Virus record (IMG/VR): IMGVR_UViG_2531839477_000015 | Coordinates: 1-18,808 of that record | Source: a virus | Taxonomy: Duplodnaviria; Heunggongvirae; Uroviricota; Caudoviricetes | DNA: 18,808 nt | Direction: 5' to 3' (one strand) | Shown here: in pieces, positions 4,981-18,224 of the stretch | How the letters are laid out: the number at the start of each line of letters is the position of its first letter | Numbering within the stretch: the stretch's first letter is position 1 | Notes under the pieces: model-generated | Databases searched by the model: none | Told to the model about the DNA's origin: nothing | What the model saw: only the letters and a program-made list of their open reading frames with translations | Translations under genes and position numbers: made by a program

Positions 4981-5141
4981 TTCTTCCCACTCCGCAACAT
5001 CGCATTCAGATATTTGTTGTCGTTAACAGAACCGAAACTCTTTCTTTTAAGCAATTCCTCTCTCGATGGCATTGGCTTTACGCGTTGGCGAATAATCATT
5101 TCTGCCGGAAGAATGCCGGGATTGTATGCAAGTCCTCTCAT
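4979..5141 (-). CDS. Small ORF (53 aa), translationally coupled
   Basis: Not in the >=60-aa track. ATG 5139-5141 overlaps the upstream stop (ATGA) and its own stop overlaps the next ATG; translation [54 protein letters not shown]. Confidence 0.35.
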
Positions 5142-5428
5142 GATTTACTCTCCACGAACTGGTCAATAGCCATGCTAAGTGACATACCTAAAGCTTCGAT
5201 ATGCTGCTGAATATCCTGTAGCGTCCGCGCCTGAGATAACAGAATTTCACGGTTGCATAACTCTTTAACCAGATGCTCAAACTTGCTGTAATAACCGATA
5301 CGGCTTAGTGTTTCTTTCCCTGCATTCTCGCCTTCTTTGATAATTCCTCTTTCGCTAAGAATCAGATCGTGTTTGGTTCCGGTAATAACGTATTTTCCGA
5401 GGTCGATGTTTAGCTTCATTGTTTTCAT
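5138..5428 (-). CDS. Hypothetical protein (96 aa)
   Basis: Start trimmed to ATG 5426-5428 ([14 protein letters not shown]...) with GAGGAA 8 nt upstream; the track's longer ORF would overlap the upstream gene. Confidence 0.55.
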
Positions 5429-5438
5429 TGTTAATTCC

Positions 5439-5732
5439 TCAGTCATTACTGATAGCGCCATAGCGTGAGCGGTAATTACGCAGGCGCGGGTCAATTTCAG
5501 GGAAGTGGGTATATGTGGCTTTGCGGAATGGTCGGATTGATGTCTGGTAAATTCGCTCGCGTTCTTTTTTCTCTGCAAGCCATATACAGTGGCGAAATTC
5601 CTTTTCATCTTTCGTTTCCTGCGGTAGAGACATTATCCGATCGTAGTTTTTTCTGAATTTATCCAGCACCTCCGATACGGAATTGCCGGAACAGCGGCGC
5701 GCGTCGTCCGCACCATACAGAGGCGCTGGCAT
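5439..5732 (-). CDS. Hypothetical protein (97 aa)
   Basis: ATG 5730-5732 with GGAG 6 nt upstream. Confidence 0.55.
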   Translation of the reverse strand: MPAPLYGADDARRCSGNSVSEVLDKFRKNYDRIMSLPQETKDEKEFRHCIWLAEKKERERIYQTSIRPFRKATYTHFPEIDPRLRNYRSRYGAISND

Positions 5733-13648: not shown

Positions 13649-15525
13649 GTCCATCAGAACTTAGCGACCTGCTTTGGGCGCAGGTTGACAGGGTGGCTCC
13701 GCACCTGTTGCCAAACGGCAAGAAAGAGGGGCATGAGTGGGTTGCCGGTAACGTCAACGGTGACAAGGGAAACAGCCTTAAGGTCAACCTTAGCGGCAAG
13801 AAAAAATGGGCTGATTTCGCCGAGGGAGACGGCGGTGACATGCTTGATTTGTGGATGGCATGTCGTGGAATTAACCTGCATCAGGCTATGCAGGAAGCGA
13901 AAGCATTTCTCGGTATCAAGGATGACGATCACCATTTCGATGCCAAACGTGAGAAGAAATTCTCCAGACCTGATCGCAAGAAAATCGCCCGCTACGTTAC
14001 CAGGACAGAATCCCATCTTGAGTACCTGCAATCGCGTGGCATATCGCCAGAAGTCGTAAAGCGCTACGAGGTTGTCAGCGGCAAGGTGTGGAATGGAGAA
14101 CGAGAACTGGATGCTCTGGTGATTCCGTACAAACGCGATGGTGAGTTGTTGCAGGTCAAGCGAATCAGCACTGAGCGCTCGGACGGGAAGAAAGTCATTA
14201 TGGCAGAAGGTGATTGCGAACCTTGTCTGTTCGGATGGCAGGCTCTGGACGCTGGCGTGAGGGCGGTTGTACTTTGCGAAGGCGAAATTGATTGTATGAG
14301 CTATGCGCAATACGGCATCTCGGCGTTATCCGTGCCGTTTGGTGGCGGGAAAGGCGCTAAGCAACAGTGGATTGAGTTTGAGTATCACAACCTCGACAGG
14401 TTTGAGGAAATATTCATCTCGATGGACGTTGATGATGTTGGTCGTGAAGCCGCAAGGGAAATCGCAAGCCGACTCGGTGAACATCGTTGCCGTCTTGTTA
14501 CTCTGCCGTACAAGGACATCAACGAATGCCTGATGAACGGTGTTACCGAGGATGAAATCTGGCAGTACATCGGCACGGCATCCTACTTCGATCCTGAAGA
14601 ACTCTACAGCGCGCGAGAGTTTTACCAGGACACTATCAACGCTTTCTACGGCAAGCAGCAGTATCTGTTTAATCCACCGTGGGAATCTCTGGCAGATAAA
14701 TTCCAGTTCCGTGAGGCCGAGTTGACGCTGGTCAATGGTGTGAACGGTCACGGAAAAACGGAGGTTGTCGGGCATATGGCACTTGAGGCAATGCGTCAGG
14801 GGGTGAAGACGTGCATCGCGTCACTTGAGCTGAAGCCTGGTATTCTCCTTAAGCGCCTTACCCGTCAGGCAACGTGCTGCAAGATGCCGCCAGTGCTGGA
14901 AATTGACTCTGCATTTAAATTTTATGACGAAAGACTTTGGGTGTTTGGCCTGACCGGAACGGCGAAATCCGACAGGCTGATCGAAATATTCGACTACGCT
15001 CGCCGCCGATACGGGATCCAGTTATTCATCATCGACAGCCTGATGAAATGTGGCATAGGCGACGATGACTATAACGGGCAGAAGGCGTTTGTTGACTCGA
15101 TTTGCGACTTCAAAAACAAAACAAACTCCCACGTCATTCTCGTTACTCACTCGCGAAAAGGAGACAGCGAAGAAAAACCAACCGGGAAAATGGACGTAAA
15201 AGGCTCTGGAGCGATAACAGACCTGACAGACAACCTTTTCATCATCTGGCGTAACAAGGCTCGCGAGAGAGCGTTACAGAGAGTTCAGAGTGGTGAAAAG
15301 ATGTCAGAGAAGGACGAACAGCTACTGGCATCTCCGGCATCTGTTTTGATGCTTGAAAAACAACGTAACGGCGAAGGTTGGGAAGGTGGCGTCCCGTTGT
15401 TCCTTGACGAGCAATCGCACCAGTTCCTGCAACTTGAATCAGGATCGCCATATAGCTACATCGCCAATATGCCGAAATCGGAATATGACGAGGCGTGGCG
15501 ACAGGAAAACGTGACGGAGTATTAA
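13633..15525 (+). CDS. Bifunctional primase-helicase (Toprim primase + DnaB/SF4-like helicase)
   Basis: 630 aa; Toprim-like VVLCEGEIDCMS; Walker A LVNGVNGHGKTEV; Walker B-like LFIIDSLMK; occupies the lambda P position. Confidence 0.85.
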   Translation: MEAPLSPSELSDLLWAQVDRVAPHLLPNGKKEGHEWVAGNVNGDKGNSLKVNLSGKKKWADFAEGDGGDMLDLWMACRGINLHQAMQEAKAFLGIKDDDHHFDAKREKKFSRPDRKKIARYVTRTESHLEYLQSRGISPEVVKRYEVVSGKVWNGERELDALVIPYKRDGELLQVKRISTERSDGKKVIMAEGDCEPCLFGWQALDAGVRAVVLCEGEIDCMSYAQYGISALSVPFGGGKGAKQQWIEFEYHNLDRFEEIFISMDVDDVGREAAREIASRLGEHRCRLVTLPYKDINECLMNGVTEDEIWQYIGTASYFDPEELYSAREFYQDTINAFYGKQQYLFNPPWESLADKFQFREAELTLVNGVNGHGKTEVVGHMALEAMRQGVKTCIASLELKPGILLKRLTRQATCCKMPPVLEIDSAFKFYDERLWVFGLTGTAKSDRLIEIFDYARRRYGIQLFIIDSLMKCGIGDDDYNGQKAFVDSICDFKNKTNSHVILVTHSRKGDSEEKPTGKMDVKGSGAITDLTDNLFIIWRNKARERALQRVQSGEKMSEKDEQLLASPASVLMLEKQRNGEGWEGGVPLFLDEQSHQFLQLESGSPYSYIANMPKSEYDEAWRQENVTEY

Positions 15526-15554
15526 ATGACCATCTACATCACTGAGCTAATAAC

Positions 15555-15586
15555 AGGCCTGCAGGTAATCGCAGGCCTTTTTATTT
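15555..15586 (+). terminator. Intrinsic terminator (tR2-equivalent) after the replication genes
   Basis: Perfect 8-bp stem AGGCCTGC/GCAGGCCT (15555-15562 / 15571-15578), 8-nt loop, then TTTTTATTT. Confidence 0.8.
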
Positions 15587-15602
15587 GGGGGAGAGGGAAG
15601 TC

Positions 15603-16019
15603 ATGAAAAAACTAACCTTTGAAATTCGATCTCCAGCACATCAGCAAAACGCTATTCACGCAGTACAGCAAATTCTTCCAGACCCAACCAAACCAATCGT
15701 AGTAACTATTCAGGAACGCAACCGCAGCATTCGGCAAAATGCACGCCTTCACGCGATGCTATCTGAAATAAGTAAGAAGGCTACATATCATGGAAAAGCA
15801 AGAAATATTGAGTTTTGGAAGGGGTTATTCGTTTCTGGTTGGCAGATTGCAACCAACCAGCACCCTGAGATTATATCAGGGTTAGAAGGTGAGCTAATAA
15901 ACATCAGAGAGAGTACGGCGACTCTATCTGTAAAAAAAATATCCGAAATAATGGACTACATAGAAGCATATTGTGCCATGAACTCAATTCATCTTAGCGA
16001 ATGGAGGAATTATGATTGA
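15603..16019 (+). CDS. ninB: NinB (Orf-family recombination mediator)
   Basis: MKKLTFEIRSPAHQQNAIHAVQQILPDPTKPIVVTIQERNRS matches the lambda NinB N-terminus as recalled; remainder is a diverged homologue; the track start at 15585 is TTG. Confidence 0.85.
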   Translation: MKKLTFEIRSPAHQQNAIHAVQQILPDPTKPIVVTIQERNRSIRQNARLHAMLSEISKKATYHGKARNIEFWKGLFVSGWQIATNQHPEIISGLEGELINIRESTATLSVKKISEIMDYIEAYCAMNSIHLSEWRNYD

Positions 16020-16614
16020 GGTTTGGGTAGATATCGAAGGAATTCCATTTTATCAGGTTAGCAATAAAGGAAATTTCAGGTCTATTACGAGGGAAATTAC
16101 AGTAACATCAACCAGACAGAGGCCATATAAGAAAATAATTAATGGCACTAGCGTAAAACCATTCAAGTGCAAGTCGACAGGATATCTTCAAATAAAGGTA
16201 TACGGTAAGAAATACAGCGCCCACAGGATAGTTGCGAAAGCATTCTGTACAGGGTTCTGTGATGGCTTGGTAGTTAATCACAAAAATGGGCAAAGAGATG
16301 ACAATAGGGCTGAAAACCTTGAATGGGTATCTCATTCTGAAAACTCAAAGCACGGATATAAACAAAATGGAAGAATACCTATATCGCTAGGTAAATTTAG
16401 TGGTGATCATCCTGCCAGTAAAGCTGTTATTTCTACTGACATGAAAACTGGGGAGGAGGTTTATTATGAAGCAGCTATGGATGCTGTCAGAGAAGGATTT
16501 GATAGTTCGTCAATTAGTCGTTGCTGTAATGGCGAAAGCTCATATCACAAAGGAAGATTCTGGCGATTTGCAAATGAAACAATGAAAGCGAGATGGGGAG
16601 ATCGGGCTGCATGA
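16012..16614 (+). CDS. HNH homing-type endonuclease inserted at the ninB 3' end
   Basis: NUMOD4-like GIPFYQVSNKGNFRS and HNH_3 HRIVAKAF...VNHKNGQRDDNRAENLEWVSHSEN; AT-rich by eye; C-terminal KARWGDRAA equals the lambda NinB C-terminus as recalled. Confidence 0.8.
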   Translation: MIEVWVDIEGIPFYQVSNKGNFRSITREITVTSTRQRPYKKIINGTSVKPFKCKSTGYLQIKVYGKKYSAHRIVAKAFCTGFCDGLVVNHKNGQRDDNRAENLEWVSHSENSKHGYKQNGRIPISLGKFSGDHPASKAVISTDMKTGEEVYYEAAMDAVREGFDSSSISRCCNGESSYHKGRFWRFANETMKARWGDRAA

Positions 16615-17138
16615 CTATCAAATCAAATACGCCAGCACACGACAAGGACTGCTGGCAAACGCCGCTTTGGCTTTTTGATGCACTGGATATTGAGTTTGGA
16701 TTCTGGCTGGATTCGGCAGCGAGCGACAAAAATGCTCTGTGTGCTCACTGGCTAACTGAGGCCGACGACGCACTCAATTCTGAGTGGGTAAGCCACGGTG
16801 CAATCTGGAATAACCCACCGTACAGCAATATCAGGCCGTGGGTGGAAAAAGCTGCTGAGCAGTGCATACAACAGCGACAGACGGTAGTTATGCTTGTGCC
16901 AGAGGATATGTCAGTCGGATGGTTCAGCAAGGCTCTGGAGAGTGTCGACGAAGTTCGCATTATCACTGATGGACGGATTAATTTTATCGAACCATCGACA
17001 GGGCTGGAGAAGAAGGGAAACAGCAAAGGCTCCATGCTGCTGATTTGGCGACCGTTCATCAGTCCTCGACGGATGTTTACTACCGTATCCAAAGCGGCAT
17101 TGATGGCGATCGGGCAGGGCGTCAGGAGGGCGGCATGA
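16611..17138 (+). CDS. Phage Dam-family DNA N6-adenine methyltransferase
   Basis: Catalytic motif AIWNNPPYS; N-terminus [26 protein letters not shown] typical of phage Dam family; ATG 16611 overlaps the HNH stop (ATGA). Confidence 0.8.
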
Positions 17139-17311
17139 GGCGACAGCGACGAAGTTTCACCGACATCATCTGCGAAAACTGCAAATACCTTCCAACGAAA
17201 CGCTCCAGAAATAAACGCAAGCCAATCCCAAAAGAATCTGACGTAAAAACCTTCAATTACACAGCTCACCTGTGGGATATCCGGTGGCTAAGATATCGTG
17301 CGAGGAAATGA
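17135..17311 (+). CDS. ninE: NinE
   Basis: [58 protein letters not shown] matches lambda NinE as recalled; AGGAGG 5 nt upstream; ATGA overlap with the methyltransferase stop. Confidence 0.85.
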
Positions 17312-17313
17312 CA

Positions 17314-17655
17314 ATGGATTATTCACAGTTAAGTGATTTTGAAATTAACAGAATGGTAGGAGACATAATTTTTAAAGGCCTTTGGGCAAGTAAACCGGAA
17401 ACATCAGGGAATAACACCAACAAATGGTATTACGGAAATGCTGATACAACTTTTGAGCCATTAAATCATTTGCCTGACTACTGCAATGATCCGAGCGCTT
17501 CATGGCCGATTATTGAGAAATACAGGATTTCTATCTTAGACCAGTTAACTGAATGGTGTGTGGATGCAAAAGGCGTAAGCCCAATATTTGATACCAGACC
17601 TCTCCGCGCCGCCATGATTGTCTTTCTCCTGATGCAGGAGGCCAATAATGCTTAG
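17314..17655 (+). CDS. nin-region hypothetical protein (possibly NinX/DUF2591-like)
   Basis: ATG 17314 ([16 protein letters not shown]...) with GAGGA 7 nt upstream; family assignment is tentative. Confidence 0.55.
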
Positions 17656-17861: not shown

Positions 17862-18224
17862 GTGAATACCTACAGCATCACATTACCTTGGCCTCCGAGC
17901 AATAATCGCTATTACCGCCATAATCGCGGGCGCACGCACGTCAGCGCAGAGGGGCAGGCATACCGCGATAACGTCGCCCGAATCATTAAAAACGCAATGC
18001 TAGATATCGGCCTGGCTATGCCTGTGAAAATCCGCATTGAGTGCCACATGCCGGATCGCCGTCGCCGTGACCTGGATAATCTGCAAAAAGCCGCTTTTGA
18101 CGCACTCACTAAAGCAGGTTTCTGGCTGGATGATGCTCAGGTCGTTGATTACCGCGTTGTGAAGATGCCTGTTACCAAAGGTGGGAGGCTGGAACTGACC
18201 ATCACCGAAATGGGGAATGAATGA
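17862..18224 (+). CDS. rusA: RusA Holliday-junction resolvase
   Basis: 120-aa [40 protein letters not shown]...[15 protein letters not shown], recognised as RusA; GTG start. Confidence 0.9.

Follow-up and report, generated by a model that had tools for sequence, protein, structure and literature searches.

The stretch of viral DNA considered here, 18,808 nucleotides of the IMG/VR record IMGVR_UViG_2531839477_000015 (Caudoviricetes; hereafter the window), contains at positions 15603 to 16614 a ninB gene and, overlapping with its end, a gene for an HNH endonuclease. From the joints described below, the middle of a resident lambda-type ninB has very probably been replaced by a cassette that came from another lambdoid lineage and that brought with it both the body of a different ninB and the nuclease gene. 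As an overall account of the locus, a homing-type cassette that replaces the middle of ninB appears to be the best explanation, one that we hold with somewhat more than even confidence. The features upon which the argument depends are as follows.

15603-16019, plus strand: ninB open reading frame (ORF), 138 amino acids, with its stop codon at 16017-16019.

15603-15728, plus strand: codons 1-42 of ninB, the resident lambda-type 5' segment and putative left homology arm.

15729-16583, plus strand: the imported cassette, 855 bp that stand where the HNH-less allele has 284 bp (ninB codons 43-137).

15729-16019, plus strand: ninB codons 43-138 and stop, from a different NinB subfamily, within the cassette.

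16003-16007, plus strand: GGAGG ribosome-binding site of the HNH gene, inside the last ninB codons (read directly: GGAGGAATTATG).

16012-16614, plus strand: HNH endonuclease ORF of the I-HmuI type, 200 amino acids, comprising core codons 1-191 and captured tail codons 192-200.

16584-16614, plus strand: relic of the resident lambda-type ninB, codons 138-146 (KARWGDRAA) and TGA stop, now the HNH C-terminus and the putative right homology arm.

16595-16601, plus strand: GGGGAGA ribosome-binding site for dam, inside the relic tail and 9 nt ahead of the ATG at 16611 (read directly).

16611-17138, plus strand: gene for a dam-type DNA N6-adenine methyltransferase (Pfam Dam, 218 bits), its start overlapping the HNH stop (ATGA).

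Lambda NinB (J02459 40644-41084, translated) is identical to the window protein over residues 1-42, as an earlier note on this DNA had stated. Phage Sf101 (NC_027398), with primase/helicase, NinA, a 441-bp ninB, dam and NinE, provided the comparison allele that lacks the HNH gene. The left flank (15335-15728) matches Sf101 at 98.2% identity up to an exact end of the homology at 15728; the right flank (16584-17300, 717 bp, relic tail included) is 99.2% identical; and the intervening 15729-16583 can be aligned neither to Sf101 nor to lambda, both breakpoints being sharp. The nucleotide alignment with lambda and an HNH-less relative that had been proposed as a check thus maps the breakpoints, via Sf101, to 15728/15729 and 16583/16584. 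In other words, a single locus is polymorphic for the presence or absence of the nuclease gene, the flanks of the allele without it being 98-99% identical to those in the window. Because 855 bp stands for 284 bp between such closely matching flanks, the event was a replacement as opposed to a plain insertion. On the left side the joint comes directly behind codon 42 (..CAGGAACGCAACCGCAGC), within the most conserved segment of ninB (..VVTIQERNRS), and the right joint falls between ..GAAACAAT and GAAAGCGAGATGG.., 27 nt ahead of the resident ninB stop. On this alignment, the resident DNA of the HNH gene is the 27-nt tail and the stop codon only.

The composition of the cassette is also distinct, with 38.8% guanine plus cytosine (GC) versus 48.9% and 47.5% in the 1-kb flanks, which agrees with the earlier description of the HNH gene as AT-rich. 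When the window ninB is compared with that of SEN22, the proportion of synonymous sites that differ (pS) rises from 0.14 over codons 1-42 to 0.73 over codons 43-138. Such a jump in synonymous divergence at codon 42/43, taken together with low GC over the whole 855 bp, identifies the segment as imported DNA. The earlier statement that NinB begins like lambda and then diverges has therefore to be given up, since codons 43-138 were imported from another subfamily. It could still be supposed that a resident lambda-type ninB received the HNH gene alone, close to its 3' end, and that the upstream ninB then diverged in place, and the resemblance of ..LSEW plus KARW.. to the lambda ..LALEW/KARWGDRAA is in keeping with this. 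Yet the divergence is abrupt at codon 43, far from any such insertion, and codons 43-138 represent a separate, widespread NinB subfamily which bears the HNH gene in other genera and ends in ..W/G.xY[DE]; with the synonymous jump and the low GC also against it, this history seems most improbable. What holds of the original suggestion, that a free-standing homing endonuclease had entered near the 3' end of ninB, is the homing type of the nuclease and the existence of HNH-less alleles such as that of Sf101; what does not hold is that the HNH gene entered alone, as it is part of an 855-bp block with a ninB body. Similarly, the objection foreseen there, that the HNH gene might be ancestral at this position, is correct for the donor lineage (Yersinia, Pantoea, Salmonella, metagenomes) but not for the lambda-type backbone.

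The NinB encoded across the left joint has a complete core: its 138-residue ORF scores 138.8 bits against Pfam NinB and covers profile positions 2-129 of 131. The subfamily to which codons 43-138 belong is recognisable from the motifs ..QNARLHAML..FWKGLFVSGWQIAT..PGLEGE.INIREST.. (also ..EFWKGLFVSGWQIAT..PGLEGEFINIREST); the cassette part has ~38% protein identity to its lambda counterpart, and subfamily members that are 55-86% identical occur in Salmonella, Yersinia, Pantoea, an Acinetobacter-labelled bin and metagenomes. In lambda NinB the core occupies residues 3-128 of 146 and is followed by an 18-residue extension, whereas the window ORF ends 8 residues past the core, and the C-termini of the subfamily are equally short (..WRNYD, ..WRKYD, ..GGRYE). 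The bases for the window end, ..LSEWRNYD and stop, double as ribosome-binding site and start region for the HNH gene (GGAGGAATTATGATTGA), and the GGAGG site is also kept in APC_JM3.2 and SEN22. The HNH start (16012, +1 frame) overlaps the ninB stop by 8 nt; this overlap, and the end of ninB at 16019, had been read correctly from the ORFs. Judged by its sequence, the window NinB is no shortened lambda NinB, since its core is complete and its short end is typical of its subfamily.

In this regard, the central-channel residues Q45, N46 and H50 are present in the window NinB and R102 is invariant in the sequences aligned, position 50 of NinB/Orf being Trp or His across the family (PMC4118853). The C-terminal helix of lambda Orf (R132, W137, R140, W141), which adds modestly to DNA binding (PMC4118853), is missing from the window NinB, and family membership stands because that helix lies outside the Pfam model. 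The codons for K138-A146, including R140 and W141, are now within the HNH ORF. A split host gene ('genes in pieces') was considered and rejected, as the upstream ORF has its whole core from the cassette and the downstream fragment amounts to 9 codons. A run of eight A's lies at 15932-15939 inside the cassette ninB, and on two IMG/VR contigs (L042, L044, L221, L226) ninB is frameshifted at this run and ends ..SVKKYPK and stop, with the HNH gene intact 60 nt downstream; this could be either genuine decay of ninB or a homopolymer sequencing error. A NinB-HNH fusion through frameshifting at the same run was likewise rejected, the shifted frame halting after a few codons (..KKYPK).

The right-hand joint is marked by the relic tail. 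Codons 192-200 of the HNH gene (16585-16611) read KARWGDRAA, the last nine residues of lambda NinB, so that the C-terminus which the earlier note gave is right according to the J02459 translation, and 16585-16614 matches the lambda tail at 28/30 bases. With Sf101 the tail agrees at 31/31 bases, and from there the 99.2% homology runs on without a break into dam. Chance or an ORF artefact was rejected as its source on the basis of this match and of its contiguity with 717 bp of homology, and the view that the old ninB tail is now the nuclease C-terminus gains from Sf101 homology that begins inside the old gene and continues unbroken. The tail belongs to the resident right flank, since it is continuous with the downstream homology and since small tail variants partly track the identity of the downstream gene (29 cassette-bearing loci). 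Seven of its codons, KARWGDR, are missing from the HNH relatives of SEN22, Enterobacter phage vB_Ecl_MII_001 (hereafter MII_001) and Yersinia, which end in ..WRFADERMAA or ..WRFGDKGKVAA; the tail is therefore a derived scar, and by parsimony the 21 bases would have been gained by the E. coli clade when the cassette entered a lambda-type ninB. The motif 'W..RF[AG]D' at the nuclease end was also tried as an old NinB tail and rejected for the NUMOD4 type: it aligns with ..YTFRY of I-HmuI and is thus native to the nuclease.

The HNH ORF reads in frame through the old tail to the old ninB stop, such that the tail supplies the stop codon of the nuclease. The ninB frame is the sole frame that ends at the TGA of the ATGA overlap; of the remaining two, one would give a fusion with dam and one, read by eye, stops ~29 codons into dam. 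Removal of the tail would be expected to uncouple the next nin gene, which has its ribosome-binding site and ATGA overlap there, and retention of the tail may be for this translational coupling as well as for its use as a homology arm. In an AlphaFold2 model the last ten residues have a mean predicted local distance difference test score (pLDDT) of 61, the terminal helix being of low confidence; the old C-terminal helix in the tail might conceivably dock the nuclease on NinB or on DNA. Separately, the lambda-type NinB clusters P0103 and P0111 (E. coli) differ solely at the extreme tail, which reads ..EWKARWGDNLLN and ..EWKAR, respectively, each before the stop, and the last ninB codons may be a joint for other rearrangements too.

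The nuclease itself is, from sequence comparison, of the homing-endonuclease type, I-HmuI-like and free-standing. In Pfam, its ORF gives NUMOD4 at 51.2 bits (above cut-off) and HNH_3 at 45 bits (cut-off 24.8), and I-HmuI_NUMOD-like scores 19.3 bits, below its cut-off of 27. The match to I-HmuI (PDB 1U3E; E = 4.7e-14) aligns residues 55-186 with chain residues 36-170 of 174 and spans both the HNH catalytic core and the C-terminal DNA-binding part, with ..HKGRFWRF (end residue 186) corresponding to ..HKGYTFRY, which ends four residues short of the I-HmuI C-terminus. A PADLOC 'homing endonuclease' profile matches residues 5-190 (E = 2.3e-26). Since homology to I-HmuI and to the PADLOC profile stops at residue 186-190, the last 10-14 residues of the nuclease lie outside the family. 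A role as a known defence-system protein was rejected, PADLOC giving 'homing endonuclease' profiles and a weak ZorE match (E = 0.002). H71, H90, N102 and N111 are invariant in alignments of six and of twenty relatives, and comparison of the HNH gene with that of SEN22 gives a proportion of differing nonsynonymous sites (pN) of 0.13 against a pS of 0.79 (pN/pS ~0.17). Purifying selection is strongest on the DNA-binding half (pN 0.07-0.08 with pS of at least 0.79 versus SEN22 and MII_001; pN 0.185 versus Yersinia). The AlphaFold2 model of the whole protein has a mean pLDDT of 86.8.

The HNH ORF is intact in all the cassette-bearing IMG/VR contigs that were read except one, L031/L227 (IMGVR_UViG_2713896798_000010), where a DDE_Tnp_1 transposase gene of an insertion sequence (L227 871-1851) breaks it and residues 47-200 are left. 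In the phage record LC616042 the HNH gene is in two pieces. No Rfam match that would indicate an RNA element or intron was found in the window, and no promoter or terminator of the cassette's own was found beyond chance, the only strong terminator-like hairpin being upstream of ninB. Lacking a promoter, terminator and RNA family of its own, the cassette is presumably expressed via the nin transcript and translational coupling.

With regard to distribution, the cassette is found whole in ~63 phage records, including Shiga toxin 2 (Stx2) phage 86, vB_EcoS_P27, phi419, Lahn2 and APC_JM3.2. Of 5,426 complete E. coli genomes, 77 (~1.4%) carry it, at 80 places in all, every copy being whole and at least 95% identical; the lambda-type ninB body occupies 1,491 places in 1,307 complete E. 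coli genomes. In the phage records and at the 80 E. coli places, neither the variant ninB part nor the HNH gene was ever seen without the other, and no HNH-less copy of the variant ninB body at >60% identity was found in 50,697 phage records, the closest HNH-free phage relative of the codon 43-138 segment having 44% identity. The nearest HNH-less relative overall (P0021/L015, 54% identity) ends in ..KKWSARWGA and is followed directly by ybcO, and from this end it follows that HNH-less forms of the wider subfamily carry lambda-like tails. In every close subfamily member whose surroundings were read (L007, L009-L014, L017-L047) an HNH_3 gene starts in the last ninB codons, and the pairing of an HNH gene with a preceding ninB is seen in Yersinia, Pantoea, Salmonella and metagenomic loci. 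The nuclease has 78% protein identity to that of SEN22, which comes after the same NinB subfamily, and 66% to that of a Yersinia prophage. By these comparisons the pairing of NinB subfamily and HNH gene is old and the lambda-type flanks are recent. By their divergence, the cassettes of the window and SEN22 parted long ago, yet each stands behind a near-identical lambda-type 5' segment at the same joint.

This joint is not peculiar to the window. Cassettes that are at least 98.5% identical occur behind at least four NinB N-terminal types and ahead of dam, ninC, ninD or ninE, always with the tail, and the break after ..ERNRS is found behind at least four different N-terminal types. A 933W-type N-terminus and an unrelated one (P0006/L043) are likewise joined to the cassette after ..RNRS. 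Across these sequences the ..VVTIQERNRS.. segment is evidently a recurrent crossover point. As for the other side, 115 IMG/VR loci with the tail motif could be read (another 5 motif matches being too near a contig end), and the tail was preceded by ..EARLALEW, or a one-residue variant of it, in 109 and by the cassette in 4, with 1 chance match. Where the HNH gene is missing, the gene next to the tail is dam, ninE, ninD, ninC or yet another; the tail is therefore a constant element ahead of a variable neighbour. Two homology arms that are internal to ninB, and so independent of the neighbouring genes, fit a cassette that stands ahead of four different downstream genes.

Beyond the clade of the window, captured ninB fragments recur. 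At loci L009 (3410-3961) and L010 (3410-3958) the same slot after the same NinB subfamily is taken by a nuclease of different build, HNH_3 plus AP2 and no NUMOD4, only 22-23% identical to that of the window, and these two nucleases end in a NinB-type tail ..AIEWASRFGDKQRAAA (= ..QDAKNQAIEWASRFGDKQRAAA), which scores 47 and 38 against NinB tails where the null maximum among 587 unrelated C-termini is 30. Within the NUMOD4/HNH_3 family, 11 of 50 representatives (members with an extension of at least 9 residues after ..WRF) carry ninB 3'-end fragments in frame and none does so in the other two frames, a contrast that is biased to in-frame matches because out-of-frame peptides diverge faster. The junctions lie at varied NinB positions, namely ..AFGTQRGVEWS.. 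(~118), ..GTEHGVKWADEAKAA, ..SDASRLEIEWATRWGKS (~128) and KARWGDRAA (138). At L195 the upstream NinB, of 129 amino acids, holds its own copy of the segment that recurs in a different version at the nuclease end, and at L193 NinB ends in ..INAW, the very point at which the captured fragment sets in, which belongs to a different NinB type; both loci fit an incoming ninB-HNH unit that took over part of a resident ninB. No significant likeness to NinB was seen for the tails of SEN22 and Yersinia or for the extensions of L011, L012 and L014 (empirical p = 0.07-0.40). At L193 a downstream DnaB-type helicase gene (5041-5567) has a weak Pfam 'Hom_end_hint' match, which hints at an intein in the same phage.

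A mechanism can be proposed from these features. The nuclease would nick or cut HNH-less ninB alleles of co-infecting or resident lambdoid phages, and recombinational repair would then carry over the nuclease gene along with the ninB body that belongs to it and is presumably left uncut, the result being homing with co-conversion of flanking sequence. The conserved 5' block of ninB and the relic tail would be two portable homology arms, both inside ninB. Whether the cassette homes actively in this way we regard as an even question. More broadly, and more tentatively, the ninB-adjacent I-HmuI-like NUMOD4/HNH_3 nucleases may be a lineage that rides on ninB, bringing its own ninB body, entering inside the resident ninB and repeatedly being translated through the leftover 3' piece, where the tail would give a stop codon, coupling and a universal right arm; we incline against this wider generalisation without dismissing it.

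To the bias in the comparison of frames several points must be added that weigh against homing. Cleavage, target and biased inheritance are all drawn from homology and distribution. A nuclease whose DNA-binding half is ~93% identical follows a DUF1367 gene, and not ninB, in MII_001 and in the IMG/VR loci L228, L230-L232 and L238, and so near-identical a DNA-binding half makes the placement awkward for a strictly ninB-specific target. In MII_001 (L005 1292-2333), where the nuclease is 67-68% identical to that of the window, the place in the nin region is the same. At 30 nt, the right arm is barely long enough for homologous recombination to be efficient. The old linkage, the saturated synonymous sites and the purifying selection on both genes resemble, on sequence grounds, a working pair rather than a cycle of invasion, decay and loss. 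Finally, lambdoid phages constantly exchange modules without nucleases, and for this reason the occurrence of the cassette in many backgrounds is by itself no evidence of homing.

The last point leads to the supposition of ordinary module shuffling, in which the cassette would be one more mosaic segment, its right joint an accidental illegitimate one in the ninB tail and its nuclease passive or inactive. Behind the same tail dam, ninC, ninD and ninE are swapped equally freely in HNH-less phages, the cassette has no specific promoter, terminator or RNA element, and there is occasional decay, both in the insertion sequence of the single contig L031/L227 and in ninB frameshifts elsewhere. Set against this are the intact HNH gene in every cassette contig read but that one, its low pN/pS and invariant catalytic residues, and the recurrence in ninB of in-frame capture joints with different nucleases and at different positions, which a single accident would not lead one to expect. 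We consider shuffling alone improbable, although much less so than insertion of the HNH gene by itself.

The main rival to homing is instead a working partnership, in which NinB and HNH would form a two-gene, translationally coupled recombination module that is spread by ordinary mosaic recombination. As such it would be the split counterpart of the Gram-positive NinB-HNH fusions, and the tail either a passive scar or a helix that aids association with NinB or DNA. The fusions (DUF968) are known (PMC2034487, PMC4118853), and the start/stop overlap of HNH and ninB in every close subfamily member read counts in favour of a partnership. Among 41 loci of the nuclease family outside the window clade, the upstream gene is a clear NinB in 22, a borderline NinB in 10 (Pfam 24.0 / 23.6 bits for a cut-off of 23.8), DUF1367 in 5 and something else in 4. 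Hence, in 32 of 41 more distant loci a NinB-family gene, from very different NinB subfamilies, lies upstream; the family survey was drawn from viral contigs, the scan of genome contigs having given only 5 loci. With synonymous divergence saturated, each of the two genes shows purifying selection, their identities to the window fall roughly in parallel across lineages, and the captured residues take in R140 and W141 of the DNA-binding lambda Orf helix (PMC4118853).

Other features sit poorly with such a partnership. The architecture of the nuclease, by its I-HmuI homology and NUMOD4, is that of a free-standing or intron-encoded homing endonuclease and not of a small zinc-finger HNH, and there is no Pfam DUF968 match. 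Both NUMOD-like and AP2 DNA-binding architectures share the one slot, the nuclease also follows DUF1367, and most lambda-type NinB proteins function without an HNH partner, as seen in 1,307 versus 77 E. coli genomes. Since SEN22 and Yersinia have the tail in reduced form or not at all, the nuclease does not require it; the low pLDDT of the tail in the model is a further point. A partnership appears to us a possible but rather unlikely account, while replacement by a homing-type cassette remains the preferred one.

The surroundings of the cassette are those of a mosaic P22-like/lambdoid early region, with any one phage record covering about a third of the window at most. The dam gene is resident backbone outside the cassette and is 99.2% identical to that of Sf101. 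Its start at the ATGA overlap is favoured by the phi419 record, in which the annotation places it there, and by the ribosome-binding site, whereas the Sf101 record (L072 12545-13132) sets the methyltransferase start 64 nt inside ninB; because the cassette took the place of that sequence, the earlier start is unusable in the window. The remaining neighbours are the following.

15527-15607: NinA-like ORF, 81 nt, which overlaps the ninB start by ATGA; its counterpart is called NinA in the Sf101 record.

17135-17311: NinE (Pfam 142.6 bits), 3' of dam.

17272-17655: NinX-family gene, 3' of dam.

17862-18224: RusA, 3' of dam.

Inside the NinA-like ORF there is a strong terminator-like hairpin at 15555-15578 (AGGCCTGC..GCAGGCCT, then a T run), which we take to be at the position of lambda tR2.

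Work on homing endonucleases has centred on T4 and other virulent phages; far less has been done in temperate lambdoid phages, the mosaic genomes of which are usually put down to general recombination alone. Base-exact joints within a single recombination gene, along with an HNH-less allele, make it testable whether a nuclease drives some lambdoid mosaic joints. Many Stx2 phages carry the cassette. Should the wider reading of a lineage that rides on ninB hold, temperate phages, many Shiga-toxin phages included, would have a self-contained homing unit nested within one of their recombination genes. The cassette also shows cleanly how a mobile gene can lack its own stop codon and rely on the final codons, the stop and the downstream translation signals of the gene that it displaced. 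There is a consequence for annotation too: existing records say 'HNH endonuclease', 'NUMOD4 domain-containing protein' and 'NinB', and the 200-residue 'NUMOD4 domain-containing protein' and 138-residue 'NinB' of such prophages are chimeric products of the replacement. HNH genes are drawn in some ninR regions (Figure 1A of PMC4118853), and in the literature searched we found no description of an HNH cassette inside ninB, of its replacement structure, of the captured tail or of the family-wide association.

Of the known systems, I-HmuI, the HNH homing endonuclease of Bacillus phage SPO1, is like the window nuclease in the sequence of its catalytic core and DNA-binding part. I-HmuI is encoded in a group I intron of the DNA polymerase gene and nicks one strand, whereas the window gene is free-standing, has an extra N-terminal NUMOD4, sits after ninB, ends in nine NinB-derived residues and has a predicted activity. 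In concept, the cassette is like the Seg/Mob nucleases of T4-like phages (e.g. MobE), where a nuclease gene lies by conserved genes, its product cuts genomes that lack it, and it is copied into them with its flank. Free-standing phage HNH endonucleases are described as mobilising themselves and flanking DNA (PMC2790892) and nuclease genes as marking boundaries of genetic exchange between phages (PMC10448857). In contrast to the Seg/Mob case, the flank in the window is two thirds of a neighbouring gene from a distant allele, both joints are in one gene, the nuclease has no stop of its own and ends in host-gene codons, and the host is a temperate lambdoid phage. Gram-positive NinB/Orf-HNH fusions (DUF968) also pair a NinB-family protein with an HNH domain (PMC2034487, PMC4118853), but these are single polypeptides with a small C-terminal zinc-finger HNH, while the window has two ORFs in different frames with a stop between them and a nuclease of the I-HmuI type, to which the only NinB part that is fused is the nine-residue relic. 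With lambda NinB/Orf itself (PF05772, a recombination mediator) the window NinB shares the core but not the 18-residue extension.

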